Source: Cyanidioschyzon merolae (Eukaryota). Taken from it: a stretch of DNA of 64,000 bases. Below the pieces are notes generated by a model. It was not told where the DNA came from and made no database searches. It saw nothing but the letters and a program-made list of their open reading frames with translations. This document shows, in pieces, positions 1 to 28,510 of this stretch. The number at the start of each line of letters is the position of its first letter. The first letter of the stretch is position 1. Made by a program: the position numbers and the translations under genes. The stretch lies in the NCBI GenBank assembly GCA_000091205.1, contig AP006497.2. One strand, written 5' to 3'.

Positions 1-41
1 ACTGTTGCCGCTGTCCCAGACGCTTGCACTCGATTCCAGCG

Positions 42-1262
42 TCACCACGATGTTGCTGTGGACTCGGCATTGCACCGAGTCTCGATATCGCTGGTGTCAG
101 TGTCCTGTGCATCATCATCGGTATCGATCCAGGGAAAGCGCAAAAGCGCGGCAATGCCGCCGATATCCGCCAACTGCTGGCCAGTCGCGTGTGCGCTACT
201 GAAGAGATGCACCTGGCCTCGGGCCGACTCCACCTGATCGACCAGGGCAACGAAGCGCTTCCTTTCTGACACCTCTCGATGGCGGAACAAGGCGTCCGTG
301 ATTAGGAGGTGCTCGACTGCACCCATTTGTGCGGCTCTCTCTACCTGGTCCGGGCCATAAAGCGCACGATCTGAATCCTGATGTATCTGCTCGTAAAAGG
401 TCTGTAGCAAACGCTGGTTCACAGCAGCCTTGGTGTCATTGATCAGGGTCATGGTCTCGGGCGAGGCGAGCACTTCATGAACGGCCTGCATGCGACCACT
501 GCCTGCCGCCACAGCGATGAACTGTCGCTTGTGTTCCAGAATAGACCGCAGGTCCCGTCGAGCGGCCTCGGCAAACAGGTACTGCAGGAACTGCTCCCGC
601 ACGTAACCCGGTGAAGCGATGACGACGCAACGCACTTGTTCTAAGTTTACCTGCTGGAGCAGTGCTCGCATTACTGCCTCGAAAAAGCGTTCCAGCGCTT
701 TATCTCGCACGCCGAAAGCGGTTGCGGCGCGCTGCAACTTGCTGGGAACGTGCTGCTGGATCCGCGCTCGAAGCAGCGTTGCAGTGCCGCTTACGAGACA
801 GAGGTGCGCGAGTCCTTCCTCCATGACGCAGATCGCGATGTCCGCGGACTTGCTGGGATCACAGGCGGTTTCCAAGGTTCGTAGGTGGACGCGGTCGAAC
901 TGCGACTTGATGAGATCGAACCGAAGCCCGGTCGTTATCTCGAGCGTGTGGTGCTGCTCTCGCTTCACATACTCGTTTTCGGACACGTTCTTGCCCTGGA
1001 TCCGGAGGGAAGGTGCCTCCGTGTCATAGTCAATTCGTTGTACCCGGATCGTCAGCACGAGTCGTACGCGTTCCGTGTGCCGAGCACTGGCGCGTTGCTC
1101 AGTCGCCCCCGCGAGAGCGACTTTTCGCCAGGTGGTTGTTCGCACCAAGTCGCCTTTGTCGATGAGGTTATAGGCGTGCCAGAGGTCCTCGCTGTTTTCT
1201 GGTAAGAGCGCAACTTCAAAGCGCTGATCTTTCAGGCTCACACTGCGTCGGAGGAGCTTCAT
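42..1262 (-). CDS. PELO: Pelota/Dom34 ribosome-rescue factor (eRF1-like).
   Basis: The translation aligns along its whole length with Pelota: an N-terminal MKLLRR..LLPE..EDLWH.YNL, then ..ACDP..AD.A.V.MQEGLAH.CLV.., ..RALERF.., ..VAS.PGFV.EQF.., and an acidic C-terminal tail. The ORF-track start at 1274 is TTG. The first in-frame ATG (MKLL...) is at 1262-1260. Confidence 0.85.
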   Translation of the reverse strand: MKLLRRSVSLKDQRFEVALLPENSEDLWHAYNLIDKGDLVRTTTWRKVALAGATEQRASARHTERVRLVLTIRVQRIDYDTEAPSLRIQGKNVSENEYVKREQHHTLEITTGLRFDLIKSQFDRVHLRTLETACDPSKSADIAICVMEEGLAHLCLVSGTATLLRARIQQHVPSKLQRAATAFGVRDKALERFFEAVMRALLQQVNLEQVRCVVIASPGYVREQFLQYLFAEAARRDLRSILEHKRQFIAVAAGSGRMQAVHEVLASPETMTLINDTKAAVNQRLLQTFYEQIHQDSDRALYGPDQVERAAQMGAVEHLLITDALFRHREVSERKRFVALVDQVESARGQVHLFSSAHATGQQLADIGGIAALLRFPWIDTDDDAQDTDTSDIETRCNAESTATSW

Positions 1263-2593
1263 ACGACGCTGCAACGGGTGTCAACAACGCCAGCGTCAAC
1301 CGCTTGATGGATACCTCGGGCTGTGCTTAAGTTCGCTGTAAACGCGGAACGAGAATGCTTCGTCAAGCGGAAATATCTGCAGGACGTTCGAACCCGATTC
1401 TATAGATCGGGTGGGTGACGCTCTTGATAAAGAGACACCAAGAGCCGGCTTCGTATGTGTAGGTAGACTGGTTACCTGGTTGCATGGAAGCACGGATTTG
1501 GTAAACACGCTTACTCGTAGCAGCGATGGCTCGGTTTTGTGTGGTATGTTCAGCTGCGCGCCTCATATGGAACACTTGTGAACAACAACTGGGGCAATAG
1601 AAACGCTGCGGAGACGCAAACCTTAGAGCGGACACGGTTGGTGGACTTCCCGCACAGCTGCACGCACGACTTGACGTTTGTGTCGAGCTTGCTATCCGCG
1701 AACGAGCTTGTTTACACGGTCAAAGGACTCATCGGGGTCGACAAACGTCCGACTACCCGGTTACTCTATCGAGTTTGCGAATATGCGTTCCAGAGCGCTA
1801 CGTTATGCTGCGAAAAGCCGCGTGTCACAGCACGAAGCGCTGCTCAGGGCACAGGTAGCTCGCTGCCGCGAGCGTATCGGTTCACGACTCGCTGGAAATC
1901 CCGTTCTAATGCAAGTGGTTAGCTTCTTGGCGAGTCGCGGAGCTGCAGCGGTAACGCTGTTTGCTCCGTACGCAGACTCCGTGGCGTCCGCGCAGGCTCT
2001 CCGACCCGAACGCTGAAACCAGTACCCGTCAGGAAGCCTGCTGCATAGATGGATATGAATCGGCATGGTTACCTCGAGGGCAAGGCTACATGCTGATTGA
2101 TACAATACGTTTGCTCGACGGACTCGAGCTTGCCATTGAATTCGTTATGACACTAGGCTCGTAACAGCTGCAACGAAATCACGAGTTTGCCCCAAGGTGC
2201 AGCAGCAGCAGCAGCGCTCACCCGGGTGCAGACGCGGGCTTGTTTCCGCGCGGCACCCGCGGTACGCTCGACGTCCATATGTTCCCTGAATCGATCAAGC
2301 CTAGCTTTCAGAGGACAAGGAATGGACAGGAGCAGGTAGACCGTGAAAGCATCCACAGAAGAATCGAAATCGCTTCGCTGGAAATCGGTTCTATTTGCAT
2401 GCATGCGAGTGTTTGTTTCGATGATTCATCGAGCGTAGATTGTAAGAAACAGCGAGCGAGTCGCATTTCGCGCGAGCAACTGTCCTGAGCTGGCGATACG
2501 CACGATCCTTGCCTTCATCAGTCAACATGGAAGCGGACTTTTAGGATGATCGCACAAGCACGGTATCGGTGGCGAGCGAATGATCGTGATGCC

Positions 2594-4306
2594 TCACGAA
2601 TCGCATAATCCGCACGCTTCAAGGAACTGTTCAGGGTGCTCCAGAAACGGTACATGGCCACATGCCGGAATCACCCGGAAACTGACCTGATGCTCCCGAG
2701 GCGCTGCCTTGTCCATCACTTGATATGCTCGCTCAAGTTCATGCACGCTGATCAGCGAGTCCGTGGCTCCAGCAACGATGCGGATTCGGCCATTCACACA
2801 ACATGGGAGTTGCTCGAGAATAGACCCGCCAGTAGTCTCACCATCTGAGGCCAGCGGGTGCACGCAACGCGCTGTGCGTTTCTTATGCGATACGGTTACG
2901 AGCGCTGCGAACGCCAGATCAGCACTTTGTCCGCCACGACGTGTTGCCAAAGCGTACGTGTAGCGGCGGAGGTACCGCGAGCGAAATCCCAAATCGCGTC
3001 CGGGCCATCGCAGCCGGAATGCTAGATAGCCAAGCACTCCGGCGTTTCGCATGATCATTTGCGGCGTGAGCTGGAAGTACACCGCTCGTTTGTAGCTTTG
3101 CTTGGACCAGATGCCTGCGGGCGTCACGAGCACGAGGTTCTGGACCAGCCCATTCGATGCTTCGACGGTGTAGCGGCTGGCAACGTAGGCGCCGAGCGAA
3201 TGGGCAACAATGTCGATACGTTTCCCGTTTTTGCGACACCAGCTTTCGATGCCGGAACTGTACAGAAATTCAGAGATGCCACGAATCATAAAATGGACAG
3301 CTACTTGGGCCCTCGCTGCGGTGTCCCTCGGGGCACGTCCTGTCGTGTATGGCGGTCGAGACGAGCGCCCCCATCCGAGCATATCGATGGCGTAAACGAC
3401 ATAGCGCCCGGTAGCGGCGAAATCCGCGAGAACGTGTCGGAAGTAAGCAGAAGACATGGAGTGTCCATGAATGAGCAGCAGAGGCCTCAATTGAGGATTT
3501 GTCCCCGAAAACATGTCCTGCTCGTTGCCGGCCACCAGCACGTGCACAAAGGGCAAGGCCGCAGCTGGCGACCGGTTACCGCTTTCGGGGACTTGGGAGG
3601 ATGTGTCGCTTGAAACGCTCGACATGGGTGTCCGCTCGAATGACTCACTATCGGCTACATCCGTTAAAGGAGACAAGTAATCATCTACGCTGAGTGGCGC
3701 CTTCAGTCTCGAAACGCTCATCTCAGAAGACCATTCAGGGAGCGCTTCAGAGCTGACAGAGCTCAGCGAAGGACAACGCCGAAGTATGGGATCTATCGCT
3801 TGAAGTGCTCCACTTTCCGCCTGTTCGACGGGAATATCATCGAAATTGAGTTTTCGCTCGAGCCGTTCCGTACTGGTGCTCGCAACAGCTGCGCACCGGG
3901 TCGCTGCCGTCGGGCCGGACTGCTCCCAGCGCGCGAGCGTGACGCGCCGTGCAGTGACCACCTCGGTATTGGCCTGTTGGGGGCTCGTTCCTCGTCGCCA
4001 TGAATTTCGGAGGGAGCGAATGCGCTCGTATGACAGCTCATCGCTCCCAGCAGGCGGTGCATGGGAGCTTGAGCACGCGCCCTGGTATTCACGACGCAAG
4101 CAGAGCCCCACTTCTGCGAGCACTTTTTCCTCCAGAGCGTCAAGATCCCGCTCAACCACCGGTGGTCGCGTACCCAGTAGGCGAGATAAACACTTTTGCG
4201 CCTCCAGGCTTATGAAAAAAAAGGTTATAACTCGTAACATGGCAGTGCACGTGGAAGCAGCACCAACTCGCGCACTGCACATGCATGGAGCCGCAGCTGC
4301 CGCCAT
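2594..4306 (-). CDS. Alpha/beta-hydrolase fold protein of the ABHD4/5 (CGI-58) type, with a roughly 250 aa low-complexity N-terminal extension.
   Basis: The fold markers are IHGH...Y.IDMLGWGRSSRP, a nucleophile-elbow HSLGAY, and a C-terminal ACGHVPFLEHPEQF, which is the ABHD4/5 architecture. The ORF begins with a real ATG at 4306. Confidence 0.65.
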   Translation of the reverse strand: MAAAAAPCMCSARVGAASTCTAMLRVITFFFISLEAQKCLSRLLGTRPPVVERDLDALEEKVLAEVGLCLRREYQGACSSSHAPPAGSDELSYERIRSLRNSWRRGTSPQQANTEVVTARRVTLARWEQSGPTAATRCAAVASTSTERLERKLNFDDIPVEQAESGALQAIDPILRRCPSLSSVSSEALPEWSSEMSVSRLKAPLSVDDYLSPLTDVADSESFERTPMSSVSSDTSSQVPESGNRSPAAALPFVHVLVAGNEQDMFSGTNPQLRPLLLIHGHSMSSAYFRHVLADFAATGRYVVYAIDMLGWGRSSRPPYTTGRAPRDTAARAQVAVHFMIRGISEFLYSSGIESWCRKNGKRIDIVAHSLGAYVASRYTVEASNGLVQNLVLVTPAGIWSKQSYKRAVYFQLTPQMIMRNAGVLGYLAFRLRWPGRDLGFRSRYLRRYTYALATRRGGQSADLAFAALVTVSHKKRTARCVHPLASDGETTGGSILEQLPCCVNGRIRIVAGATDSLISVHELERAYQVMDKAAPREHQVSFRVIPACGHVPFLEHPEQFLEACGLCDS

Positions 4307-4789
4307 GTCGCTACCCGCCCGGATCCGGTACCGATGCGGTGCGATGCGTTGCCGCGCGCGCGCGGGCGCTGCGGCGCGCCATCCGTTTGCGCTTACGATT
4401 ATAGAGTTTCACCTGAACTGTGTTCCACGTTCAGATCCGTGTCAACGAATGCCTGTTCGCGGTTTATTGCAGGTGCTTTCTACGTGCGTTGATTTTCAAA
4501 AATGCAATATTCAAAGGAAAAGTATGGACATGCAAGTCGGGATCATGGAGGTGAGATGTTGCCTGATTCGACAAAAAGAAACACGATAAGATTCCTCTTA
4601 TTGCCGAGTATCGGACGAAGAAACGCGAGTGACGAAGGCGAAGTGGAAGAAGCGTGTTGATAGGCGAGGAGAGCTGTTTGCCCGACGAGGCTGTGACGTG
4701 ACCTTGGTGGCACAGAGGGCACGAGTCCTTATGCACCCTTGCGTTGATGACTTGTACCAGAGACAATACACGCTGGGAGTTCATGAATC

Positions 4790-4930
4790 GAGACTTCAAC
4801 GCTGCGCCATTAAAAACAGACGATGTGCGGTGCTGAAGAGGCGACCCGCGTACCCGACGCGAGCCAACTTTGTGGGCCAGCCTCTCACACTCGATGTGTG
4901 CAACGATAAACTGAACTCACTAGTCCTGAA
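4790..4930 (+). mobile_element. Short, degraded relic of the TnpB/Fanzor-like element (copy C), covering the region just after RuvC-III.
   Basis: ORF 4629..5051 reads ...QRCAIKNRRCAVLKRRPAYPTRANFVGQPLTLDV.... This matches NAAVNVRRCAVLEKRPPEWTRENFVGQSLKVEL of copy A and KETRPPKLTRPHFLGQPLQVE of copy B. Confidence 0.3.
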
Positions 4931-5591: not shown

Positions 5592-6668
5592 CTAGTTCAA
5601 GGGTTTCGTCGCAAGCCACACCCGATGCCGCGGCGTATTGTTTTCGGTCTGCACGTCAGTGAATCCACTGATTGTCAGTAAACTGACCATATCGACGCGT
5701 TCATACTCAGAAAAATACGGTTCAGTGCTGCGGAATATGGCTGCTCCGACCGGGGGTATCGAACGGAACGCTTCGCTGTGCGGATCAGAATCCATCATCG
5801 CCAACATGCCTCCGGGGCGAAGCACTCGATACGCCTCTACCACGAGACGCTCGGTCGCTGCCATGGGCAGCTCATGTGTCACCAGGGAACATAACACGAG
5901 GTCCACCGAATCCGCTTTCTGAGGGAGGTTCTCGACCGCGGCGTGCTTAAAACGCACCTGAATCGATGACGGGTAGCTGCGCTCCTCTGCACGTAACTCG
6001 GCAACCGCAAGCATGAACGTCGATAAATCGATTCCTGTTATGTCGAGCGGGCGTTCCGGATACCGTGCTAGCCATGCATCGATGAAGCGCATCGTGCTGA
6101 GTCCAGTCGACGCACCCAGGTCGAGTGCTACCAGTGGACGTCCCATGGGCACGAGCAGCTGTTCCAGACGAGGCCAGACTCGGTCCAGGAAGGTGTCGCG
6201 TAGCAGGCGGTCACCTTGCGTGGGCGGTGCTTCCGGGAAAAGGCGTGCATGGACCGCCAGAGCCGACGACTCGACTTCCATGGCAGGAATCCAGCCAAGG
6301 TTCCCTTCCGGATACGTATGGAACGGTGCACGTACGTAGTAGTCTGGATATACGAGGTCGCGTTCGACAAGTCGCGCTCGTTTCTGTTCGAGGGTGTCCC
6401 ACTTGAGCCGCAGCTCACGAACGTTCTCTCGCCAGGGCACGCCGATCTCCTCCGCTCTCTTGACGACACCTGCACGGCCAATTCGCTTCAGTAACCAAGC
6501 AGTGGGCGGGAAAGCTAAAATCCCTTGTACTATCAGAGCCGGCAGTTTGCCCTCGGGGTTTCGCGTCACTGGAGTCGTCGCCGAAGCGTGAATCCATCGA
6601 CAAGCTCGGTATCGAGTGCACTTCTGAGACGGCAGTCTCACGCATGGAACAAAGTTTAACTGCGTCAT
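5592..6668 (-). CDS. Class I SAM-dependent methyltransferase (Methyltransf_11-like). The 5' end is uncertain.
   Basis: Methyltransferase motifs are present: motif I VALDLGASTG, post-I ITGIDLS, motif II ADSVDLVLCS, motif III LRPGGMLAMMD. An upstream conserved block DLVYPDYYVRAPFHTYPEGNLGW is also present. The first plausible in-frame ATG is MTQLNF at about 6668. The 637 aa ORF continues upstream through a transposon relic. Confidence 0.6.
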   Translation of the reverse strand: MTQLNFVPCVRLPSQKCTRYRACRWIHASATTPVTRNPEGKLPALIVQGILAFPPTAWLLKRIGRAGVVKRAEEIGVPWRENVRELRLKWDTLEQKRARLVERDLVYPDYYVRAPFHTYPEGNLGWIPAMEVESSALAVHARLFPEAPPTQGDRLLRDTFLDRVWPRLEQLLVPMGRPLVALDLGASTGLSTMRFIDAWLARYPERPLDITGIDLSTFMLAVAELRAEERSYPSSIQVRFKHAAVENLPQKADSVDLVLCSLVTHELPMAATERLVVEAYRVLRPGGMLAMMDSDPHSEAFRSIPPVGAAIFRSTEPYFSEYERVDMVSLLTISGFTDVQTENNTPRHRVWLATKPLN

Positions 6669-6689
6669 GAGGCTCGCTATCAAACGCCG

Positions 6690-7400
6690 TTCTAAAGTCG
6701 AACGACGTCGGACGTGTATCGTAGTGGCGGTGAACGTGCCTTCGACCAGAGGTCTTCGACTGTCGTGCAGACGCCTTCCGGTCTTTTCGGACCGGCCACC
6801 TACTCCTGATTCCAACTTTTTCTCATATAATTCCACTTTGAGCGATTGTCCAACAAAGTTCTCTCTTGTCCACTCTGGAGGTCTTTTCTCCAGCACCGCA
6901 CATCTCCTGACATTGACAGCAGCGTTGAAGTCTCGGTTGACGAATTCCATACGTTTCTTGCCGCCGTTGGTTGTGCTCACCAGCGCATGTAGTGCTCGAA
7001 CTTTCGTCCTGCTTCCCATTTGCTCTTCTGTCAAGACTCCGCACTTTTTTATATCGTCAGGACTGATCTGGCAATTTTCCATCTCGAGCGTCTGAAGTGT
7101 ACACCCCAGCTCGTGGTCTATGCAGGACGTCCGGAACTCGTCTATCGGGAATGTGACAAAACGCCTTGCGCACTCCTTGTACGCGCGTGTCGGTGAGGCT
7201 GGAGTGCACCCTGTTTTCGACGCCCAGCGCCCTGCTCCGTATGCTGGTACGAGCCTTTGACGCTTGTCCTCCTTGAGGGTGCTCAGCGCATGAAAAAAGT
7301 TCCCAAATGCACGCCATTCCGCACAGTACAAGTTCATACGCGGACGATGGCATGGACCTTGGCTTTTGCACGCTCTCTCCGCCACTGCTTCCATTGCCGC
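6690..7400 (-). mobile_element. Degraded TnpB/Fanzor-like (OMEGA-type) nuclease fragment covering RuvC-II, the zinc finger and RuvC-III (copy A).
   Basis: The translation reads ...RLVPAYGAGRWASKTG..P...AYKECARRFVTFPIDEFRTSCIDHELGC...C...C...KKRMEFVNRDFNAAVNVRR. This resembles TnpB blocks: (i/v)xxGxxxx...TSQxCsxCG and the RuvC-III signature DxNAAxNI. The DNA and its antisense ORF (6667..7095) align with copy B at 23420-24000. Confidence 0.5.
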
Positions 7401-9945
7401 TCTCTTAGCCCCGAGTGAACATGTGCCGGTCTCTCTTGTCCTTGCAGTTCCCGAGTCAGCAGTCGAGGGATGTCGATGGCAGCGTTCAAGTTCCGATTTC
7501 GCCACTTCCCGCCCTTGGTAACGCGTCCCGCGCGTAGGGCCAAGTTGCGGTCCGCACGTCGTTCCCCACGTTCATCTTCTGTGCACATACAGCTTCGGTG
7601 TGTCTTTCGCTGCGCTGACACCGGACTATGATCAGACGTTCGCATATTCGTCTGCCGCATCTCTCACGCGACCGAGCGCCGCCCTGTGGCATGCGAAGGC
7701 TTGCTTCAGCGCTCGATGCATGTCCGGGACTGGCGTAGAAGGCGCTCGTCGAATCCATTCTTTGTCTGCATACCGGATGCCGTGACGAACGATGACGGGC
7801 TGCTTCCGGGCGATTCCCTTTGCGAGTGCGCTGTATGGTGCAAAAGCAAGCATACGCTGTCCCGTTTGAGAAGGGATTCGTGGAATGCGATATTGGCCGT
7901 GGTGAAGCAGGCACCGGAACGATAACACTCATAGGAGAACCAGTCAAGTGATTTCGATCCGTCCACGCTGTTCTACAGCGAAGCGGCGATCCAGTCTGCA
8001 CCAGAGGCGATCGCTGCGACGACTATAGTCAGGGACTTCATTCCATGCAACCAGAAGAGGCGAGTGCATCTGGGCGCGAATCCCCGTGTAACGTACGATG
8101 CAGCTGTCGAATTCCCTGTCTCGCGGATGACCACAGGGACACAAGGATTTGTCTTTCGAAAGGATTCGATCATTTGATACGAGAAGCACGATGAGGCTTG
8201 GGCGTGAGCGTGTGAACACGTCGTCAAGGAGCGACGTCGGGCTCCGTGCCGCGCCAGTCCAGTGGCGAGCATTGCTGTGCCCACGGGTTGCCTTGAAACA
8301 GAAAGATCGAAAACATGAAGCATGCATGATTTGCGCATGCTGTACACAAGGAATGCGATAGCGGTAGAGGCTTGTGCCTACAAATTGGTTCATAAAATCG
8401 GCTATTTTACAAACCTTTGTTTGGCGGCGTCGAGAAGCATCTCGATCCCGGCGACGTATCGAGTTACAGGGGCAACGCGTCGAAAGTGGCACGCAGTAAC
8501 GCCGACCGGGAATCCGGAAACCGCGCATGAATTCCCAAGCCCTGATTGTTGCACTTTGAGTGTCTAGACCATATATCTAGGAAAATGCCGGGGAATAAAA
8601 TCGAAAGGCAGGGCCAGCGTGTGCAGTGCAGTATCCCATTCCAATCTAACGCTCGGCTAGCATAAACCGCTGTTCACGAAACGGCATCCATGCAATAAGA
8701 GGAGTCAGCGTACGCTCCGCAAGTCGAAATTGGACTGGGTATTCGGCAGCCTCGCAGGCGCGTTCATCGCTCTGGGCGACGAGTTCCAGAACTGGAGAAG
8801 TCTCTCTGCTCCTTCGGTGCCTCCGCGTGCAACCGAGACTTGGCCAAACAAGTGACAGGTAGCAGGCGCCCGTCACGCAATCCCCAGCATCTTCGACCGT
8901 ATCATCCGTACCGGGAATTCGGATGCTCAACACGGCCAGGCGACGATGCGCGTCCGTTTCGGAGCAGGCGAAGCGGTGCGCTCCAACGCCGGCACCCGTG
9001 GCGCCTCGCATCTCTTCGGCGAAGCGACTCGAACGCGTCAACCCCAAGATATTTCTCTAAGACTTGGCAAAGCTATTGAATTGCCGTGACGCACACAACG
9101 AAGCGCTACCCCGATTGCACCCTGCTTTTATGGTACACGGTCGATGCACCGAGCCAGATTGCCATCGGTAACCGGAAATGAAATCGATGCGCTCATCCAG
9201 ACGTTTTTGCGTATCTGAACCCTGGACCCGTATTCCCCGTAACACTGCACGCTTGATCGATCCCGCAACGCTCAGAGTGCAACGCCCATGGTACACGTCA
9301 AGCAGAGACAACACGATTTTCATCGATCCTTGGAGGCATTCGTTCAAGGCAGTTGCGTCATTTTGCATGCCGAGCGCTCGCTTGGCCGAGATCCGCGCAC
9401 CTCTGTGCGCGGCGTCCATGCGCCGGTACCCGTGTCCGTGCGCGGCTGAATGGCGCAGCGATCGCCGTCGCGCCGCCGCCACGCATCGCTGTCCGGTGTC
9501 GCATCCGTGATCGCGGCATCGCATCGGATGCGTGCAGCGCATGCACCCCGCGCGCCCAGCACGGATCGCGCAACCAAAGCATCGACGTCACGCGCCCTGA
9601 GCGCAGCGCCCGCGGACGCTTGAGGGCGTCGCGTGCATTCACGACGCTCGCGGGATCGGAATCTACTTCCGTGCATTTCGCAGCTTTGAGTAAACTTCAA
9701 GACACAGAAGCGCAGCTTATTTCGATCTCAAGTTTCATCTAGCGTTCGCTTACGTGTCGCAAAAGTGGAGAAAGCAATATGCTGGTTCTGCCTGCGCTCT
9801 GCAGCGTACCAGGCACCGCGTCACTCTGATCCGCAGTTGTTGACCTGCGCGCCCTCATCGACACACAGACGTGGTATCCAGGACGAAGCGCGTCCGCTGG
9901 TCTCGTTGTGATCCGGCAAATGCGCCCACGCCCGTGGCGCAAACA

Positions 9946-11106: not shown

Positions 11107-11454
11107 CTTTGTTCAATAGTTTTCGTGCCACTCGGTTCAGAACGGTTTCCTCGAACCGTTTCGAGAAACGCTTGACGCTGACACCACGACGAGAACGCTC
11201 TGAGCTGGTAACCCGCCCGCCGACCGAACGTTCGTCCTGACGCTGCGGCGCGCAGGCTGCGGGTGCCCGGTCGAGCAGTGGTGGTGGCGTCTGAAAATGC
11301 GCACGCGCGCGCGCTAACGCAATCTCCGGCATCGGCACCGACCGCACTAGATAGAACAAAGGACAGAGGCTATCCAGTAACTAGCAACGATATAAGGATT
11401 TATTTTCTCTTCTATGATTAATGTTAACATGACGGAAGGATTTCCGTATTGTCA

Positions 11455-12150
11455 AAAGTTTAGCTTCTAGGCGGAAGGTCCCGCGATCTGGACAAGTCTG
11501 TTAGGCTGATGCTTCATGCGCTCCCGCAATAGCTGTTGCTCTAGCGAGACCTGAGCAACTCGTCCGCAAACGCAGTTCATTCTGGGACTCAGAGCGGATA
11601 CACTGCGTTTCGATGTCGTCACGGTCGCAGTGGACTTCTTGTATATTGCTTCGCGCTGCAGCAGGCAATAGGTCCGTCTGCGCGATTGGCTCGTTCCCGG
11701 AATGCTCATGAATCCTGATTCCGTAGCAGGTGAATGTAGGCAAAAGGTCCGTCTGCGCGATTGGCTCGTTCCCGGAATGCTCATGAATCCTGATTCCGTA
11801 GCAAGTGAATGCAGGCAAAAGGTCCGTCTGCGCGATTGGCTCGTTCCCGGAATGCTCATGAATCCTGATTCCGTAGCAGGTGAACCACGCCTCGGGCCGG
11901 CACCCTTTGCAGTATGGCAAAAACGTCCTACCTCCGCGATGTATCGTCATCAGCGGTATGAGCGATAAAGCGGACGCTCACGACAGGTACTCGGCGCACG
12001 ATAGAACATACGAAACGACCAGCATATCCGTGAGGAAATATGGGTAAAGGAACTTGGAGCTAGGGTGCAGCACCATGACCAACGCTCTTCTGATTACCAT
12101 TATCCATCCGGCAACCTGTCATCCATGCTCCATGTCCACCGGTTTGTCAT
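11455..12150. repeat. Dispersed repeat, copy A (about 550 bp core), carrying an internal tandem expansion.
   Basis: It begins aggcggaaggtcccgcga... and is alignable along most of its length with 25975-26510. Antisense and sense ORFs in the two copies translate to similar peptides (MLMNPDSVAGE..PAPFAVWQKRPTSAMYRHQRY versus MLVNSDSVSGG..PAPFVVWQKRPVSVMHRHQRL). Confidence 0.6.
11671..11895. repeat. Tandem repeat of 75 bp x 3, nearly identical units, inside dispersed-repeat copy A.
   Basis: Units start at 11671, 11746 and 11821 with the sequence ggtccgtctgcgcgattggctcgttcccggaatgctcatgaatcctgattccgtagcaggtgaatgtaggcaaaa. Copy B (25975-26510) carries a single unit. Confidence 0.85.
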
Positions 12151-12409
12151 CGAGAGAGACGGAGAGAGACCGGATAGCGCCATCGATGCGCTATCGTCGA
12201 TCGCCGCCGCTGCCATCATCTGTTGAGGGTGCCTCCAGCCGCCAGCGCGCGCCCGGATCGCGGCGACCGCTCTGCGCATCCGTCGTCCAGAGGCACGGAG
12301 TTGTGAACCTGCCCCCAGACACGTACGCTGCACCGTGTACTGCCTTTGCAGGAGAGGCGCTCTCAAGTCTCCGCTATTCAGGTTCACTTCTGGCGCATCT
12401 TCTATCGGA

Positions 12410-21625: not shown

Positions 21626-22996
21626 TTACGTTGTTTCTGATGAGCCGGTTGGTCCCTGCAGGAGAACATCTTCACCGAGGATGCGCAGACCTGGTACGCT
21701 CGGGGTGACTTCCGGTGCACTGCGACCCGGGCGCGTTTGCTGCTGGTCGAGAAACGCGTGCAGGGTGGAGAATCCAGCTCGTTCCTCTTGATACATTTGT
21801 TGCATTCGCTGTTGGAGCGCGTCTAGCTCCTGATCGATGATGCCGCTCTGCTGAACGGAGCTGTACGCGTCTGCAACTGTGGTTTGCGGGGTCTCCCGGC
21901 CGAACGAGTCGCTGGTGGTATTACTAACAGAGGCATTTTCCAATTGAGATGAATCGGGTTGTAAAAGCTCCAGCGGGTCCGTGTCGTGGATGTGCTGGCC
22001 AGAGATCGCACCCACCTGGCGCAGGTCAGGCACTGGCCGGTTCGAGAGATCTCCCTGATCGCTTAGATACGTCAGTGCTTGCGTCCATTCAGGACTGAGG
22101 GCTAAAAAGTCCAAACCAGCAGATGCTAGCTGGCTGTTCATTATCTCCACGGAAGAAAAGAGCCGGAGCATGAACCCTTGTAGGTTGTGGAGCTGTTCCT
22201 CCCGTTCAGATTCTCGCTGCTCACTTTCGACGAGTCGCTGTTCAAGGCGAGCATAAAGACGACGCAGTTCGCTAAGCTCTCGCAATAACAGGCTGTTGTC
22301 GCGGCGAAGACGAGCAGCCTCGTCCTCGAGCGAACCATACTTACCAATCTCGATTGTTCTGTTGCCCCGTCCGAAGATGCGACTCAACCATGGCGGTTTT
22401 CGCTGATTCCCTGAATCCGAAGTGTTGAAGGTTGCCAGATCCTCCTCGCCCAGCAGCTCAGATGCAGCCAACGGGACATTGATGTGCTGCTGAAGGTAGG
22501 CAGCGTTCGCGTCTAGCCGCGGTTTGGAGGCAACCCCTCCGGGCAGCATGCGCACACCCTGCACTGGCTTGAAGGCGCTGCCATGGTTCACCGAGCCCGA
22601 GGAGCCGCTCGTACCAGATGCTCCCAGTACCCTCTTCCGTCGCTCGGGCCGGTTCCGCTTGATCTGACTCAAAAGGTCCGGCCGGTCTCGTCGGAAGAAC
22701 TCGTGCTGGAACTCCCAGCGCTCGTGACTGATCTTGTGAAACCCGTACTGATTCAACTGTCTCACAAAAGACGACATGTTGCTGTGTTTGAAATAGGCAG
22801 GAAGCACTTTTTCGGTGAAGTCTCCGACCCGCCAGATAACGAAAGACTCCCCAGACTCTTCCCAACTGACAGTGTCCGCCGTCTCAGCATCCTGGACGAG
22901 ATCGTACACTTTTTGGATGAACACCGTGGTCTGAGGCTTATCCGTATCCATTTTTGAGTCAAAGCTTGGGTCCTGTGTGATGTCTGCAGCGCCCAT
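21626..22996 (-). CDS. HSF: Heat-shock transcription factor (HSF).
   Basis: The HSF-type DNA-binding domain is FIQKVYDLV...VSWEESGESFVIWRVGDFTEKVLPAYFKHSNMSSFVRQLNQYGFHKISHERWEFQHEFFRRDRPDLL. It is followed by a heptad-repeat coiled coil (..LRRDNSLLLRELSELRRLYARLEQRLVE..). The track start at 23047 is GTG. The first ATG is at 22996. Confidence 0.85.
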   Translation of the reverse strand: MGAADITQDPSFDSKMDTDKPQTTVFIQKVYDLVQDAETADTVSWEESGESFVIWRVGDFTEKVLPAYFKHSNMSSFVRQLNQYGFHKISHERWEFQHEFFRRDRPDLLSQIKRNRPERRKRVLGASGTSGSSGSVNHGSAFKPVQGVRMLPGGVASKPRLDANAAYLQQHINVPLAASELLGEEDLATFNTSDSGNQRKPPWLSRIFGRGNRTIEIGKYGSLEDEAARLRRDNSLLLRELSELRRLYARLEQRLVESEQRESEREEQLHNLQGFMLRLFSSVEIMNSQLASAGLDFLALSPEWTQALTYLSDQGDLSNRPVPDLRQVGAISGQHIHDTDPLELLQPDSSQLENASVSNTTSDSFGRETPQTTVADAYSSVQQSGIIDQELDALQQRMQQMYQEERAGFSTLHAFLDQQQTRPGRSAPEVTPSVPGLRILGEDVLLQGPTGSSETT

Positions 22997-23419
22997 GGCG
23001 AATACCAGCGCCGTGCACTCGGAAAAGCGAGCGCGAATACCAAGCACGCCACAAGGAGCGTTCTCAACAAAAGCGAGAGCCGCCTACCTCGACAACTACT
23101 TTCAGATAGATAGACAGACAGCCAAACACAGACAAACCTCCAAGTCGAGTCTTTCCCCGTACCGATATCGTGGCACCCGAGCAGAAAGCGCACCCTCGGG
23201 TAACTTGTCGTCTTCGTGCAAGCGAAGCAACACACTGTTCGTTCGGGCTGTTGCCCGCTGCATCAGGGAGCGCGTCGATCGATGCGCGATCACCGGCCGC
23301 ACCGGCACGCCAGTCAATCATCGATGAAAAGCTGCGTAACCCGTGCCCGCTGTGGTGGTGGTGGTGGTACCGAGCGACGCACCGCCGCCTCCGCCGCCAC
23401 ACTCTGTAGAATACGTATC

Positions 23420-24000
23420 CACCGAGCCGATCGGCGGACGCTTCGCCGGCTTTTCGGACCGGCAACCAACTACTCCTGCGTGCAACTTCAGGTCGTACTA
23501 TTCGACCTGGAGAGGTTGTCCCAGAAAGTGGGGTCGTGTCAGCTTCGGAGGTCTCGTCTCCTTCAGTGCACGTCTCCTAATATTGATTGCAGCGTTAAAG
23601 TTTCGGTTCACGAATTCCATACGTTTCTTGGCATTGGTTGGTATCACCGACGCAAGTAGACCTCGAACTCGCAACCTCCACGCCATCAGGTGCTCTGGCA
23701 GCGCTCCGTACTTTGCTATATCCTCAGGGCTCCGCTGGCACTTTTCCATCTCGGCACTCTGAAGTGTACACCTCAGCTCGTGGTGTAGATAGGAGTTTCG
23801 GTTCCCATCTATTGGCAACGTGACAAGACGGTGTGCGCACTCCTTGTACGTTCTTGTCGTTGGAGCGGGTGTACACACTTTTTTAGACGCCCGGCGCCCT
23901 GCGACGTATGATGTTACGAGCCTTTGGCTCCTGTCCTCATTGAGGGCGCTCAACTGGTTGAAAAAGTTGGCGAATGCACGCTTTTTTCCCACTGTACAAG
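23420..24000 (-). mobile_element. Degraded TnpB/Fanzor-like nuclease fragment (copy B) covering RuvC-II, the zinc finger and RuvC-III.
   Basis: ORF 23498..23992 reads ...RLVTSYVAGRRASKKVCTPAPTTRTYKECAHRLVTLPIDGNRNSYLHHELRC...KKRMEFVNRNFNAAINIRRRALKETRPP. The antisense ORF 23343..23762 parallels 6667..7095 of copy A. About 600 bp of DNA aligns with copy A. Confidence 0.5.
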
Positions 24001-24545
24001 CTCATACGCAAGCGATTCATCCGGGGCTTTGTATATTCTTTGCACAGCGCTTCCCAATGAGCAACGCGAACTTTTATGAACTCCCGAATGACCTGAAAGT
24101 CCGCTCCATGGCTCGTCACCTCGCTCATAGCTTCCAGATGCTCGTTCACTCCTTCATTTTACGTCTCAATTTTCTTCCTTGCATTCATTATTCCCGATTC
24201 TCGGTAATATCTAGCTTCTGAGAGCTTCAACAGAGGCATGTTTTCCTGGCGCAAGCCGCCGTCAATACCATCTTCCCCACGCTCGGATACCGCAATAGGT
24301 ATAATATTCATGTTCCCGGGGCCCGCGCCAACGACATAGTCCTTACCCTGCACCGCATGCGTCGCAGGATCCGCCTCCTTTTTTTTCATGCCTCGCCGAC
24401 GGCGAAGCATGAAGATGCAATGGGACGATCCACTTTCAAGCGCCGATCGTGTACACACACGGCTGCTCCATCGGCTTCGATCATCTCAGTAAATAACTTT
24501 TGTTTGCTCGTTTTCAGACGTTTGAAATCGAACATATTCACCCAA

Positions 24546-25358
24546 TTACGTCTCCCGGTTTTCGCCCGTAAACTCCTTGCTGCTTAGATCGAACTCCGGA
24601 TAGATCTCCTTCATTTTGCTGTAAAGTACGTAGGGGCCAACTGTCACAAAATGTGACTTGATGTTGCATAGCGGAACGACATTGAAGCGCTTACCCATTC
24701 GGGCAGCGTTCCGTTTCTCTGACTCTTCATTTTTCCCCTCACACGCTGCTCCATCTCCGCCTTGCGTTCGAGTTCTCGATTCAGGAATACGAAATAGTGC
24801 AGGATGAGCGGATAAAAACTTTTTTTCATCTCTGATACCTTTTCTGCTGGATTTGACAAGCCCCAAGACTACACAGTGCTCGTGAACAGCCATACGAATG
24901 ACAGAAGCTTCATTCTTGCCCCTGCGTGATGCCTTCTTGTCGACGAATTCGATCCCCTGTCCATTCTGGCGATCGTTCGTGATGCCACTGATGATGGCCC
25001 GTATCCCCTGGCGGGAGAGGCCCGGGCACAGTGTAAAAATAGCCCGTATGATGAAACGTTCGAGGTTCACGATCATATGGTTCTTCCGGTGCTTGAGGAA
25101 CTTGATTGCCCCGTAGGTGTAAATATCACCATCATCCCTGCATCGAGTACCGTCGAAGCGGAATTCGGCGTAATTCTCGTGGAGGGCGTGCACTCGCTCA
25201 TTTTTCGTCGACGTTTCCCCTGTGCCAACCATCAGGTGGCGAATAAACGTCTTGCTGAAAAATCCCCCCGGGACCTCGACCATTTTGATGCCCATCACGT
25301 CCCGAAACATCTTCTTCATCAAATACATAAGCCCTGACGGAGCCTTCATAATACTCAT
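24546..25358 (-). other. Unassigned 270 aa ORF inside an AT-rich island (about 24000-25800). It lies upstream of, and in the same orientation as, Fanzor-like copy B, and may be the N-terminal or other coding part of the same element.
   Basis: Its base composition differs sharply from the flanking DNA. It is a long ORF co-oriented with copy B. I recognise no motif with confidence. Confidence 0.25.
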
Positions 25359-25974
25359 GGAGTACGACTCGACACGGTTTCTGAGTGCATCTCACAACTT
25401 TCCCTTTTAGGGATCCTTGATATGCCGAAGAAGACGGGCTTTCACAACCATCTCGTCATAGTGCCGTCTCTCTTGCAGCCTCTGACGTCGGACTTCCCCC
25501 TTTTTGCTTTTCGTCCTCTCCTGTTCTTCTGTACTTGACACTGTTTCTTCTTGCAGCCGGCGACATGATGCCTCCATAATCCTCCATTTCCATTTCCATG
25601 ACTTGCACTTTTCATTTTTTTCAAAAAGAACACGCTTTGAAAGCCTCTGCTATAACTCACGAAAAATCACTGGAATACACTTACTTGAGGGTTGGAACAC
25701 AGTTGAGTTCAAAAACTCGACGTTGCTATGACTTCAACGTAAATCCATCCGGTAAGTTAGAGCAACACGCTGATGATCAGGATCGTGTTCCCCTTGAACG
25801 GCGGCGTACGCATGGTGTATCATACCTTCCAGATTTAGAGATGCGCCTATCGACAGCACTATGCGGAGCAAAGAACAAAGACTTACCACTAAATGGCGAC
25901 GATACATCGATGTCTTTCGCTCTCTACGATAAACGTGAAAAGGGGAAAATGTTTCTGACCTGTCGAAAGCGTAC

Positions 25975-26510
25975 CTTAAAGGCGGAAGGTCCCGCGAACC
26001 GCACGAATCTCCCAGGCTTGCGCCTCATGCGCCTCCCAGTGGCGGGTGCTAGAGTGAGATCAAAGCAAATCGTACGAAACGCAGTTTATTCTGGGACCAG
26101 GGGCGGGCGGCTTGCTTCTGGGCGTCGCCCTTGTCGTGGAGGACTCCCCGGAAATCGCTTCTCGTTGCCGCTGATAGGATGTCCGTCTGCGCAGTTTGCT
26201 AGTTCCCGACATGCTAGTGAATTCCGACTCCGTATCAGGTGGAGCATTCCTCGAGCCGGCACCTTTCGTAGTATGGCAAAAACGTCCTGTCTCCGTGATG
26301 CATCGGCATCAGCGGTTGAGGCGCTGTTGCGGATGCAGTAATGCAGGTAATCGGCACACGATAGAACGTACAAACCGACCAGCGTATCCGAAAGGAAGTA
26401 TAGGTCAAGGAACTTGAGGGTGAGGTGCAGCAGCATGATGGACGCTTTTCCAATTACCATTACCCATCGCGCAATAAGGGATCCATGGTCAATGCCAACG
26501 TTTTGTCATC
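25975..26510. repeat. Dispersed repeat, copy B, homologous to 11455-12150 but with a single 75 bp unit.
   Basis: It begins aggcggaaggtcccgcga.... Similarity to copy A continues through ...ggcaaaaacgtcct..tccg.gatg.atcg.catcagcgg... and ...ggaacttg.g...ggtgcagcagcatga...attaccatta.ccatc.... Confidence 0.6.
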
Positions 26511-27841
26511 GAAAAAATCTCCCAACTCAGCTCTGCATCATGCCGCCGCTGGAGCGCGCGCTCGATCCGCCACCACGCGATCGTACCGATGGCAGAAATG
26601 TCAGGCCTGGAACGGTGCTGCTGCTGCTGCTGCGTGATGCATTGGGCGCTGGAACTGCAAGCCGCTCACTTGCTACTGCCGCGCCATCTGGCATTTGGTC
26701 AGCTTACCATCACATCATCTCATACATCCGTAACTGTTTCACGCGCTTCTTGTCTACCAGTTTCGAAGAGCAGTCGTGCCCGTGATTCGCTCATTTCATC
26801 CTGGACGCATCCGTGTGAATCGTGCAGAGTCGACTCCTGCAAGTATGGGGTGCTCACGTCGAGGGCGCGGAGGTGCAGCGAGCGCGCAGTCGCATGTCCA
26901 GCGCCATGGGTTGCCGCCGAGCGACGTGACGTATCGTTCAGTGGCAATCAACATCATTGAACAAGTTGGCGACTGCACGCCTCTTGCCTCCATGTAACTG
27001 TTGCCGTCGGTGTCGCTAGCGCGATATTATGTACTCCTGCCAGATAACGTTCGCATGAGCGACGTTGGCGCTCACGCACTCTGGGAATGAAGTGCGTAAC
27101 GCTCGCTACACTGCTCCGTGCTGTGGTCAGCGCTTCGGAATGGGCCCCCAAACCGCCATTCCACTTATTGGCATGCCCGTTGGCGTCCATCACGCTGACT
27201 CCCCGATCGTACCATTTCGTGGAAAACTCGAACGGATTCATGCGCTTCCTGTTCAGCCATTTGACTTGTTTGTCTTGATCTAGAGGGACGTCGATGGCCG
27301 CAAAACCCTTCGACGGGGGTTGCGTGCGCTTTTCCTCGCCCATACGCGTCGCTTCATCGCCGTTCGCATGAACGGCACGGAAACAACACATCATGTGATT
27401 TGTTGCATAGTTTTTCGTTGAGAACGTATGTATTCGGATGGTGTGATGAGAAAGTAGCCCTTCAAACACCGTTTGAAAGCTCTATCTTTGCCGCAAAACC
27501 TTGCGGATATGGACGACGAGATGCATGGTCCATGCGCCTGCTGACCACAGCATCCAGGATATGTCTAATTAAGATCTAGCTTGTCGCAATCGAACAAGGA
27601 CATGTCGACATCTCATCGCGACTACGCTCCACGTATCTGAGCCGTCCTGTGCTCTTACGTATCTGCGAGAAAAACAAACAAAACCTAAAAGGGCTTGCCA
27701 GATCAGGTGTTCCTGAATTCACTGCTCTAATTATAACTATACTTGTTCTGGGAACGCCAGCTCCCAGTTGCCTGCGAAGCGAGCCTTCAGCTTCCGCGCT
27801 CGTCGACGCCACTCGGACTGCGCAGCTGCTCCAGTGGTCGT

Positions 27842-28510
27842 ATGCAACACGCCCTGAGCAAAGCCGGAAGACTTTTCCTCGCAGGTGCTGCGGGCGCTTT
27901 CGTACTGAGAAACCCAGTCCGCGCAGATTTGGTTGCCACTGTCGGGGAAATCTTGCCTGGCACCGAAAGCGTTCTCCGTGGTCACTTAAAGGAGCTTCAG
28001 AAAACCGAAGAGGGTCGCTCTATTTTAAAAGAGAGGCCACAGATCACCGCGGAGACTCTGGCAGCGGTTGCTCTGCTCCCGCCTGAGACCCTTGGAGGTG
28101 CGTACTATGCGTTCTTAAAAAAGCACAGTTTCAACTCAAGTGAGCGAGCAGAGGCTTCTTTCATCTCCGATCCCGATCTAGCTTACATAGTCCAGCGTTA
28201 CAGGGATATCCATGACATTTTCCACGTGGTAACGAACCTCACGCCCACGTTGACCGGAGAGGTGGCTCTAAAGTACTTTGAAGCGCTGCAAATGGGCTTG
28301 CCAATGGCCGTACTTGGAGCAACGTTCGGGACATTCCGTCTTACCGCGAGGCAGCGGGCGGCCCTGTTCCGGGACTATGTGCCTTGGGTCGAACGGAATG
28401 CTCGCTCATGTGAAAATCTCCTGGGAGTGTACTTCGAGCGGTACTGGCAAATGTCACTCACAGAGCTGAGGAAGAAACTCAGGCTCGAGCCTTTTCGGAA
28501 AGAGTTCTGA
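27842..28510 (+). CDS. COQ4: Ubiquinone biosynthesis protein COQ4.
   Basis: The C-terminal core IVQRYRDIHDIFHVVTNLTPTLTGEVALKYFEALQMGLPMAVLGATFG..RL......LFRDYVPWVERNARSCENLLGVYFERYW...L..LRKKL matches COQ4 (YV.QRYREVHD..H.L.G.PTN.LGEI..KWFE..QTGLPMC.L.A.FGP.RL). The track start at 27743 is TTG. The first ATG is at 27842. Confidence 0.85.
   Translation: MQHALSKAGRLFLAGAAGAFVLRNPVRADLVATVGEILPGTESVLRGHLKELQKTEEGRSILKERPQITAETLAAVALLPPETLGGAYYAFLKKHSFNSSERAEASFISDPDLAYIVQRYRDIHDIFHVVTNLTPTLTGEVALKYFEALQMGLPMAVLGATFGTFRLTARQRAALFRDYVPWVERNARSCENLLGVYFERYWQMSLTELRKKLRLEPFRKEF

Follow-up and report, generated by a model that had tools for sequence, protein, structure and literature searches.

The analysed window, a 64,000-nucleotide stretch of the Cyanidioschyzon merolae genome, carries a degenerate repeat on the minus strand, flanked by two ordinary host genes, HSF and Coq4 (HSF_DNA-bind and Coq4 domains). 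The repeat is intergenic; its 3' end is followed after ~360 bp by the HSF ORF, which has the same orientation. An earlier note on this DNA had divided the locus into a Fanzor-like relic (copy B), an adjoining AT-rich island at 24000-25800, a 270-aa ORF inside the island and, as the next feature upstream, a copy of a dispersed repeat (repeat B). All of these were recovered. In a self-comparison of the window, copy B (23434-24009) aligned by blastn with a second relic, copy A (6767-7341), at 74.1% identity over 579 bp (E 3e-101), and 25851-26512 matched 11339-12153 at 69-78%; the 270-aa ORF is present and co-oriented with copy B. Their arrangement proved to be different from the one proposed: copy B, the AT-rich island, the 270-aa ORF and repeat B are contiguous parts of one repeat unit (Table 1).

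The unit was identified by comparison with the published CMe-1A consensus, for which both the nucleotide and protein sequences were taken from Bao and Jurka (2013; PMC3627910, supplementary file 2). Positions 1-3084 of the 3169-bp consensus matched window 26511-23434 (minus strand) at 81.3% over 3102 columns by blastn, and a global alignment extended the copy to about consensus position 3100-3110, or window ~23405. The 5' terminus of the element, CGATGACAAAACG, is located at 26511. The dispersed repeat is accordingly not a separate upstream feature but the element's own 5' 650 bp, and the element does not end at 25800 as had been supposed; we refer to this module as TE-N2_CMe on the basis of the published statement that the 5' 635 bp of CMe-1A are TE-N2_CMe (PMC3627910). 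The suggestion of a transposon remnant carrying a Fanzor (TnpB-like) gene holds, and the copy is colinear with the CMe-1A consensus from base 1 to ~3100. Since one published single-ORF consensus covers the whole 3.1 kb, a larger composite DNA transposon is not supported. An inverted-repeat search detected no terminal inverted repeats (TIRs) at the ends of the interval 23300-26620, in line with the published description of CMe-1A as an element without TIRs (PMC3627910), Pfam and NCBIfam scans found no transposase domain in any window ORF, and the whole window gave no matches to Rfam. The features at this locus are therefore almost certainly a single CMe-1A element, old, dead and 3'-truncated. 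The family has already been described (Bao and Jurka, 2013): its ~150 members in the genome each show ~80% identity to a consensus of ~3 kb (PMC3627910), and the divergence of the window copy matches that figure. Copies of TE-N2_CMe number ~70.

Table 1. Coordinates of the CMe-1A copy, its parts and related family fragments in the window.
Feature	Position	Strand	Details
CMe-1A copy, near-full-length, 3'-truncated, degenerate	23405..26511	-	blastn and global alignment to consensus
5' module (consensus 1-650), TE-N2_CMe; "dispersed repeat, copy B"	25856..26511	-	79.8% identity; GC 0.532
AT-rich 5' UTR (consensus 651-905)	25600..25855	-	GC 0.434 in copy, 0.435 in consensus
Fanzor1 (CMe-1) pseudogene	23404..25599	-	ATG at 25599-25597; consensus stop position ~23404
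270-aa ORF, CMe-1 residues 84-355, N-terminal (pre-RuvC) part	24546..25358	-	blastp 62.5%, E 4e-115
164-aa ORF ("copy B" proper), CMe-1 residues 542-705	23498..23992	-	blastp 71%, E 2e-78
RuvC-I catalytic codon, D to G	24321..24323	-	family GADPG, here GAGPG
RuvC-II catalytic codon, E to G	23804..23806	-	family VDEFRTS, here IDGNRNS
RuvC-III catalytic codon, D to N	23600..23602	-	family NRDFNAAINI, here NRNFNAAINI
Expected 3' terminus site (consensus ~3105-3169, two palindromes, ...GAACGGCG)	23340..23404	-	CCA/GGC-rich simple sequence instead
Copy A, 3' fragment of CMe-1A family (consensus 2504-3169)	6685..7347	-	82% identity to consensus
Solo TE-N2_CMe-like element (consensus 1-655); "dispersed repeat, copy A"	11339..12152	-	internal ~75-bp tandem expansion

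Downstream of the 5' UTR, remnants of the CMe-1 gene cover amino acids 1-725 in order, as a pseudogene. With the CMe-1 consensus protein as query, tblastn placed residues 22-551 at 25544-23961 (59% identity) and residues 542-725 at 23989-23438 (69%), and the conceptual translation of 686 aa matched 36 family proteins with E values from 2e-212 to 2e-88, the former for family member P0001 at 97% coverage. The decay of the N-terminal part of the gene noted earlier was borne out. The frame is disrupted by seven frameshifting indels at ~25553 (-8), 24859 (+1), 24747 (+2), 24547 (+1), 24409 (+1), 24386 (-2) and 23987 (+1), and is interrupted or shortened by four stops (25409-25407, 24548-24546, 24161-24159 and 23500-23498). 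The catalytic D...E...D triad of the RuvC domain, present in the CMe-1 family and in the consensus, has been replaced at all three positions, so that copy B derives from a Fanzor1 gene yet is not a functional Fanzor1. The 270-aa ORF, previously regarded as cargo of no known affinity, matches the N-terminal part of the same protein. It stays open only because the +1 indel at 24859 and the +2 indel at 24747 compensate each other; between them the ancestral frame is another one, reading ILHYFVFLNRELERKAEM, and the ORF is there partly out of frame. Judged from this alignment, the 270-aa ORF is not cargo but part of CMe-1 (734 aa), the only protein of the element. The 164-aa ORF, which contains KKRMEFVNRNFNAAINIRR, ends at a premature TAG located 29 codons ahead of the consensus stop.

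Similarity of copy B to the family is lost after consensus position ~3100. A multiple alignment of 3' ends showed that a complete terminus (...GTTCGACTTTCGAACGGCG), made up of two palindromes followed by GGCG, is common to ten other copies, with the flanking DNA beginning with TT in 7 of the 10; no similarity to this terminus was found at 23340..23404. By this comparison copy B is a truncated CMe-1A member that is without the last 65-85 bp. Copy A has an intact 3' terminus, ...GTTCGACTTTAGAACGGCG, ending at 6685. Inspection of the consensus by eye also revealed a 10-nt match resembling an asymmetric terminal inverted repeat (ATIR), in which the reverse complement of positions 5-14 recurs at ~3092-3101, ~70 bp from the end; the match exists at the consensus level and is not kept in individual copies. 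A 9-bp stem, CTTTCCCCC...GGGGGAAAG, can be read from the consensus near the end of the TE-N2 module. The idea that a single large element runs from copy A (6.7 kb) to repeat A (11.3 kb) was considered and rejected: a host gene for a DUF2838 membrane protein lies between the two, and the consensus accounts for each as a fragment of its own.

The base composition of the locus had been taken as a sign of a relatively recent insertion. The block at 24000-25800 does have the lowest GC in the window (0.488; window mean 0.561; SD of 1.8-kb tiles 0.024; z = -3.06), the twelve lowest 1.8-kb tiles (starts 23601-24701) all overlap the element, and the lowest tile outside it has a GC of 0.512. Low GC does therefore mark the foreign, transposable-element DNA, as had been proposed. 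The description "markedly" AT-rich was a little generous, as the drop amounts to 5-7 points and reaches 11-13 points only in its deepest part, 25600-25855 (GC 0.434). Segment by segment, the GC values of the copy (0.532, 0.434, 0.497 and 0.520) follow those of the consensus (0.555, 0.435, 0.520 and 0.524), which has an overall GC of 0.52 and a 5' UTR of about 0.43, and substitutions relative to the consensus comprise 250 from GC to AT and 200 from AT to GC. On this comparison the low GC is family composition plus mild GC-to-AT drift; being inherited from the family consensus, the dip is no indicator of recent insertion.

The age of the insertion was instead judged from divergence from the consensus alone, and a divergence of ~18% argues against a recent event. 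Identity to the consensus is similar in non-coding (0.80-0.81) and coding sequence (0.80-0.84), as expected under neutral decay. The frameshifts, stops, loss of the triad and 3' truncation also speak against recency, as does the finding that all environmental contigs covering the locus carry the insertion. The exact host proteins occur in metagenome contigs of hot-spring type. A presence/absence scan of a metagenome with the neighboring HSF protein returned four contigs, each with ~99% identity to the window. In three of them (L011, L012 and L013) one continuous alignment runs through the entire element, and the fourth (L010) begins inside the element, with the 3' part alone visible. No empty site was found among these four contigs, nor did the scan yield any distant orthologous locus.

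Assignment of the CMe-1 family to Fanzor1 required sensitive comparisons. The individual window ORFs matched nothing in Pfam or NCBIfam, and intact family members and ten distant relatives matched nothing in Pfam; the precomputed family label is PF26935 (DUF8286) only. A phmmer search of the conceptual protein against the PDB, and likewise a search with a shallow 14-sequence profile, returned a sole match by chance (yibL, E 0.74). Only with a deeper, 28-sequence family profile were Fanzor1 structures reached, namely those from Parasitella parasitica (PpFz, 9cf0, E 1.1e-19), Spizellomyces punctatus (SpuFz, 8gkh, E 1.5e-15) and Guillardia theta (GtFz, 9cer, E 7.3e-11), the profile matching both the N-terminal and the RuvC parts. 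An AF2 model of P0001, a homologue of the broken copy B, built from a diverse alignment had a pLDDT of 78 (pTM 0.74). In a Foldseek search of this model against the PDB, the top seven matches were Fanzor1 structures (E 1e-16 to 7e-14, TM normalized to the target up to 0.72), with the predicted fold matching SpuFz1, 9CF0 and 9CER over its full length (E ~1e-16, TM normalized to the target 0.70-0.72). Weaker matches were to Cas12f, other Cas12 proteins and Fanzor2, and P0037, a distant family relative, gave a sub-threshold match to the Pfam model Cas12f1-like_TNB. The profile matches and the predicted fold together show that the CMe-1 family protein is homologous over its full length, in structure and sequence, to experimentally characterized Fanzor1 nucleases.

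Residue-level comparison revealed both shared and divergent features. The motifs of SpuFz1 (from the element SPu-1; 8GKH, 9CEU-9CEZ), 9CF0 and 9CER recur in the CMe-1 family in the same order (RuvC-I GxDPG, RuvC-II DEfrTS and RuvC-III RDxNAAxNI), whereas sequence identity is only 12-14%. The Fanzor1 zinc-finger motif has been defined as [TS][TS]-x-x-[C4]-x(5,50)-RD (Bao and Jurka, PMC3627910), and SpuFz1 has a Cys4 zinc finger. In contrast, the CMe-1 consensus, known from sequence, has two His and two Cys without CxxC pairs between RuvC-II and RuvC-III (TSYTHHELGC...EKC), and the broader relatives in the 28-sequence set are also without CxxC. Because the canonical CxxC...CxxC zinc finger is replaced by HH..C..C, nuclease activity of intact copies is only putative. 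The CMe-1 family further differs from SpuFz1 in a disordered, variable 25-aa repeat linker ahead of RuvC-I. The elements differ as well: 33-bp TIRs and TA target-site duplications are found in SPu-1 and not in CMe-1A. With TnpB of IS200/IS605 and IS607, the omega-RNA-guided prokaryotic ancestor, CMe-1 shares the split-domain RuvC architecture, which the weaker fold matches support, but it is eukaryotic, has a much larger N-terminal region and no TnpA partner, and no direct HMM match of CMe-1 family proteins to the TnpB Pfam models was obtained. A parallel in element organization is offered by CRe-1/2/3, the Fanzor1 carried by non-autonomous Helitron2 elements of Chlamydomonas reinhardtii (Bao and Jurka, 2013), which are likewise Fanzor1-only, have no transposase of their own and no TIRs, and end in 3' palindromes. 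Unlike them, CMe-1A has only the 10-nt consensus-level match described above, and no RepHel partner is known.

Against this background the locus could be read in other ways. The proposal of a Fanzor C-terminal relic adjoining a separate, recent AT-rich island with unrelated cargo, the whole being what is left of a composite DNA transposon from one of the known superfamilies (Mariner, hAT, Helitron, etc.), drew on the GC discontinuity, which is present, and on the fact that Fanzor1 genes elsewhere ride in several transposon superfamilies (Bao and Jurka, 2013; PMC3627910). It is refuted by the consensus alignment and by the match of the 270-aa ORF to CMe-1: the supposed cargo is the Fanzor1 protein's own N-terminal half, the single-ORF consensus runs through the whole block, neither TIRs nor a transposase domain were found, and an 18% diverged copy with a broken frame is not recent. 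We regard this proposal as having next to no chance of being correct. Hardly more credible is a domesticated, catalytically dead Fanzor that binds DNA under RNA guidance, or an insertion with a regulatory role that drives the adjacent HSF gene. Substitution of all three catalytic residues would resemble dead-nuclease exaptations, the HSF ORF lies close by in the same orientation, and the insertion occurs wherever the environmental contigs cover the site; however, domestication is rejected: the frameshifts, together with several in-frame stops, leave no protein longer than 270 aa, that one itself partly outside the ancestral frame, and non-coding and coding parts have been eroded to a similar degree.

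A more serious alternative concerns the family as a whole. CMe-1A could consist of two separable modules, TE-N2_CMe (1-~650) and a ~2.5-kb Fanzor-only unit (~650-3169), with copy B arising by nested or adjacent insertion or by read-through capture through a rolling-circle or single-strand process of the Helitron2 or IS200-605 kind. Solo copies of TE-N2 stop at consensus ~655 (window 11339), and copies at three other loci (L001, L002/L004 and L005b) start at consensus 648-670 with unrelated DNA upstream; the palindromic 3' terminus with its GGCG end and TT flank, the 9-bp stem near the end of the TE-N2 module and the reverse-complement match at ~3092-3101 are also compatible with it. The modules are, however, joined exactly as in the consensus in three independent copies (window copy B, L005a and L015), and the short copies may simply have lost their 5' part or come from a subfamily whose 5' region differs, with L001 and L002 having a segment X upstream in common (90%). 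Individual copies do not preserve the putative asymmetric inverted repeat, the argument is built on a handful of termini, and Bao and Jurka saw the TE-N2 relation and assigned no class (PMC3627910). This two-part origin therefore appears unlikely, if worth keeping in mind. The related claim that CMe-1A as published is possibly chimeric, made up of two independently propagating modules, TE-N2_CMe and a ~2.5-kb Fanzor1-only unit which has the palindromic 3' termini and is also found without TE-N2, is somewhat more doubtful still. If true, either of two scenarios would be novel: the Fanzor unit may insert, or home by RNA guidance, specifically at the 3' end of TE-N2, or TE-N2 may have captured the Fanzor unit by read-through during a rolling-circle or single-strand process. 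Either would illustrate, in a red alga, the spread of a Fanzor1 gene that has no transposase.

Returning to the single-element reading, CMe-1A is a ~3.2-kb non-TIR transposable element family of C. merolae, laid out as a ~650-bp 5' module of the TE-N2_CMe kind, a ~255-bp AT-rich 5' UTR, a single 734-aa Fanzor1 gene (CMe-1) and a tail. In intact copies the 3' tail comprises ~60 bp with two palindromes, and this part is absent from the window copy. By analogy with SpuFz1 and other Fanzor1 proteins, intact family members may be RuvC DNA endonucleases guided by RNA (fRNA/omega-RNA), with the guide probably encoded by sequence that runs from the 3' end of the ORF into the right end of the element. 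In copy B the terminal ~65 nt of the element are absent. The 3' 230 nt are conserved, with palindromes, and RNAalifold on these regions of ten copies gave no covariation support for an RNA structure (covariation term +1.49, 3 of 51 pairs compensatory). Intact members might promote retention or spread of the element; transposition itself would be carried out by an activity supplied in trans, as proposed because the element is without a transposase. The window copy, which differs from the consensus in its missing 3' end, broken frame and lost D/E/D triad, is a pseudogene member of the CMe-1A family and not a variant of it. It is incapable of the nuclease and spread roles, no remaining role was seen, and it reads as intergenic transposable-element debris.

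For the annotation of C. merolae, the Fanzor relic B, the AT-rich island, the 270-aa ORF and the dispersed repeat B merge into one known repeat family, to which copy A and repeat A are assigned as well. This removes a spurious "novel cargo ORF" and is of little importance beyond annotation. The side results on the CMe-1 family are independent of the dead window copy, and the confident predicted fold, the non-canonical zinc-finger region, the 25-aa linker and the sharp palindromic 3' terminus may be useful for reconstructing an active red-algal Fanzor1.

By alignment, the 164-aa Fanzor-like ORF called copy B, the AT-rich island beside it (24000-25800) and the dispersed repeat upstream are one contiguous copy of CMe-1A, a transposable element family of C. 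merolae with a 3169-bp consensus that ~150 copies match at ~80% identity each (Bao and Jurka, 2013; PMC3627910). CMe-1A was published without TIRs, with TSDs undetermined and its class left open; it carries one Fanzor1 ORF of 734 aa, and it shares its 5′ 635 bp, at 95% identity, with TE-N2_CMe, a repeat with ~70 copies (Bao and Jurka, 2013; PMC3627910). Using consensus DNA and protein from the supplements of that paper, a single blastn match placed consensus 1-3084 on window 26511-23434 (81.3% over 3102 columns), and this colinearity unites what an earlier note had mistakenly read as a candidate remnant of a composite transposon. The features described there, namely two co-oriented ORFs and similarity between copies A and B of both the relic and the repeat, were all present (self-blastn of the window: 23434-24009 vs 6767-7341, 74% over 579 bp; 25851-26512 vs 11339-12153, 69-78% identity). 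The copy lies between an HSF gene and a Coq4 gene, and Rfam gave no hits over the whole window.

Coordinates of the CMe-1A copy, its lesions and related features (window positions unless a contig, consensus or protein is named)
Feature	Position	Strand	Remark
HSF gene	21626-23047	-	HSF_DNA-bind, E 6e-32
Coq4 gene	27743-28510	+	E 7e-68
164-aa ORF (copy B)	23498..23992	-	includes KKRMEFVNRNFNAAINIRR near end
270-aa ORF	24546..25358	-	strand shared with 164-aa ORF
Frameshifting indel	~25553	-	8-bp deletion
Frameshifting indel	24859	-	+1
Frameshifting indel	24747	-	+2
Frameshifting indel	24547	-	+1
Frameshifting indel	24409	-	+1
Frameshifting indel	24386	-	-2
Frameshifting indel	23987	-	+1
Stop codons	25409-25407, 24548-24546, 24161-24159, 23500-23498	-	
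RuvC catalytic codon	24323-24321	-	Asp→Gly
RuvC catalytic codon	23806-23804	-	Glu→Gly
RuvC catalytic codon	23602-23600	-	Asp→Asn
CCA/GGC-rich simple sequence replacing 3′ end	23340-23400	-	GGCGGCGGAGGCGGCGG … CCACCACCACCACCAC
Copy A	6685-7347	-	consensus 2504-3169; 6714-7347 by blastn, 6685 once terminus added
Dispersed repeat A	11339-12152	-	consensus 1-655 by blastn; solo TE-N2-like element
CMe-1A fragment	4456-4551	+	consensus 843-934
CMe-1A fragment	4776-4894	+	consensus 2903-3019
3′ terminus, copy A	6685-6750	-	example
3′ terminus, contigs	L014 1680-1737; L015 4180-4238		examples
TE-N2 upstream of consensus ~650	25856 (copy B); L005a; L015		
Unrelated shared segment upstream of consensus ~650	L001 9265-9675; L002 1-399		
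Acidic repeat	L001 11146-11450; consensus 2117-2196; P0001 ~376-471		

The 270-aa ORF had been proposed as cargo of its own. Three-frame translation of the minus strand between ~25650 and 23498 gave open segments that were consecutive and in order, with frame switches at few points. Spliced into a 686-aa conceptual protein, they matched 36 metagenome proteins (E 2e-212 to 2e-88), the best being the intact 752-aa homologue P0001 (49% identity, 97% of the query covered). Intact relatives, which bear the motifs VVGADPGNTNII, VDEFRTS and NRDFNAAINI, run uninterrupted across positions equivalent to both ORFs; the 270-aa ORF is therefore no independent cargo but the N-terminal half of copy B's gene. 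In blastp against CMe-1, the Fanzor1 protein of CMe-1A, it corresponds to residues 84-355 (62.5% identity, E 4e-115) and the 164-aa ORF to residues 542-705 (71%, E 2e-78), bearing out the original Fanzor call.

Neither Pfam nor NCBIfam recognized the CMe-1A family proteins, and shallow searches of PDB sequences returned nothing meaningful. An exhaustive HMMER search with a family profile recovered 2549 relatives at E ≤ 1e-3 (385 at E ≤ 1e-30), and an alignment of 28 diverse relatives (A2) kept GxDPG, VDEFRT and NRDxNAAxNI. The A2 profile matched the Fanzor1 structures of Parasitella (9cf0, E 1e-19), Spizellomyces (8gkh, E 1.5e-15) and Guillardia (9cer, E 7e-11), in alignments covering both RuvC and the N-terminal region. 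An AlphaFold2 model of P0001 built on A2 (pLDDT 78, pTM 0.74) fell below pLDDT 50 only in residues 376-471 (a 25-aa repeat linker), a loop at residues 191-208 and a few residues at the very N terminus. Its best seven Foldseek matches in the PDB were all Fanzor1 (E 1e-16 to 7e-14, target-normalised TM up to 0.72), followed by far weaker Cas12 and Fanzor2 hits. Profile and predicted structure thus support Fanzor1 membership independently of the 2013 paper.

Canonically, a CxxC...CxxC zinc finger separates RuvC-II from RuvC-III in TnpB and Fanzor proteins. In contrast, CMe-1 consensus residues ~606-625 (equivalent to window 23740-23800, minus strand) read TSYTHHELGC…EKC, two His and two Cys arranged HH..C..C, and CxxC is absent from the wider relatives in A2; the CMe-1 family may represent a zinc-finger-less or H2C2 subgroup of Fanzor1. 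Directly before RuvC-I, family members have a 75-bp/25-aa acidic repeat (…KHEE.KEADPATQEVQDNDFVV…) in 1-4 tandem copies, one in copy B, a linker that AlphaFold predicts to be disordered (pLDDT about 30).

Measured against consensus ORF 906-3110 (window 25599-~23404), copy B's gene is interrupted by frameshifts and stop codons, and the 270-aa ORF survives because the indels at 24859 and 24747 jointly restore frame. All three RuvC catalytic codons are substituted. Non-coding and coding parts are about equally close to the consensus (identity 0.80-0.81 and 0.80-0.84), as expected of neutral decay. The 3′ terminus of CMe-1A is sharp, conserved and common to ten other copies, consisting of a palindrome GCCGCCAC...TGGCGGC, a palindrome GTTCGA-CTT-TCGAAC and then GGCG, with the flank opening with TT in 7/10 copies; these features are single-strand-transposon-like or Helitron-like, though the element was published as unclassified. 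In copy B, similarity to CMe-1A is gone past consensus ~3100, where simple sequence begins; ~300 bp separate this simple sequence from the HSF ORF downstream of it. Lacking an intact ORF, catalytic residues and a 3′ terminus, copy B is, judged by its sequence, inert.

The AT-rich island had also been taken to suggest a relatively recent insertion. The dip itself is real: GC is 0.488 in 24000-25800, whereas the window as a whole averages 0.561 (z = -3.06), and the lowest twelve 1.8-kb tiles all overlap this region (lowest elsewhere 0.512), but the dip is moderate save at 25600-25855 (0.434). The consensus is itself low in GC (0.523; TE-N2 module 0.555, 5′ UTR 0.435, ORF 0.52), and copy B follows it by segment (0.532, 0.434 and 0.497/0.520) with mildly AT-biased substitutions (250 GC→AT vs 200 AT→GC). 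Since the low GC is inherited from the family, it is no indicator of recency. Among metagenome contigs sought with the neighbouring HSF protein, four carry a 100%-identical HSF and match the window at ~99% identity along 8-21 kb. The whole element lies inside one unbroken alignment in the three that span it (L011, L012 and L013), L010 begins within the element and covers its 3′ part alone, and no empty site was found among the four. With 18% divergence from the consensus and no empty site, recent insertion is not supported; the CMe-1A copy at 26511-~23404 is a decayed member of an already published family.

At least five CMe-1A family pieces occur in the 64-kb window, including two fragments (75-76% identity to the consensus) on the strand opposite to copies A and B. 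A 637-aa open frame (5592-7505, minus strand) spans copy A and, downstream of it, a host methyltransferase of class I (Methyltransf_11/25, E ~1e-16). The shared frame is probably an accident of ORF listing, the true start being an internal Met, and gene callers could mistake it for a Fanzor-methyltransferase fusion. The solo TE-N2-like element contains about three repeats of a ~75-bp unit (~11467-11859), and two environmental contigs 99% identical to the window (L007, L008) differ there by one 75-bp unit (blast overlap 147 vs 72 nt), so at population level this part acts as a variable-number tandem repeat.

The solo element ends at consensus ~655, and copies on L001, L002/L004 and L005 (L005b) start at consensus 648-670 with unrelated DNA upstream; in copy B, L005a and L015 the TE-N2 and Fanzor parts are joined as in the consensus. 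This suggests that the two modules are separable; across the few termini inspected, the pattern would fit capture or targeted insertion as well as truncation or subfamily variation. The L002 junction (3422) holds a 3-kb reverse-transcriptase-bearing insertion, and the two copies on L005 lie head-to-head, 23 bp apart (6893/6917).

In intact CMe-1A copies, as in published Fanzor1 work, a guide RNA would be transcribed over both the right end of the element and the ORF 3′ end, a step we infer, since a conserved-fold test, run on ten copies over their 3′ 230 nt, gave a covariation term of +1.49 and 3/51 compensatory pairs. By analogy with SpuFz1 bound to omega RNA and target DNA (PDB 8GKH), such copies would provide an RNA-guided RuvC endonuclease. 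An inverted-repeat search found no TIRs at the ends of the copy and the element has no transposase, so the mobility of CMe-1A must come from elsewhere.
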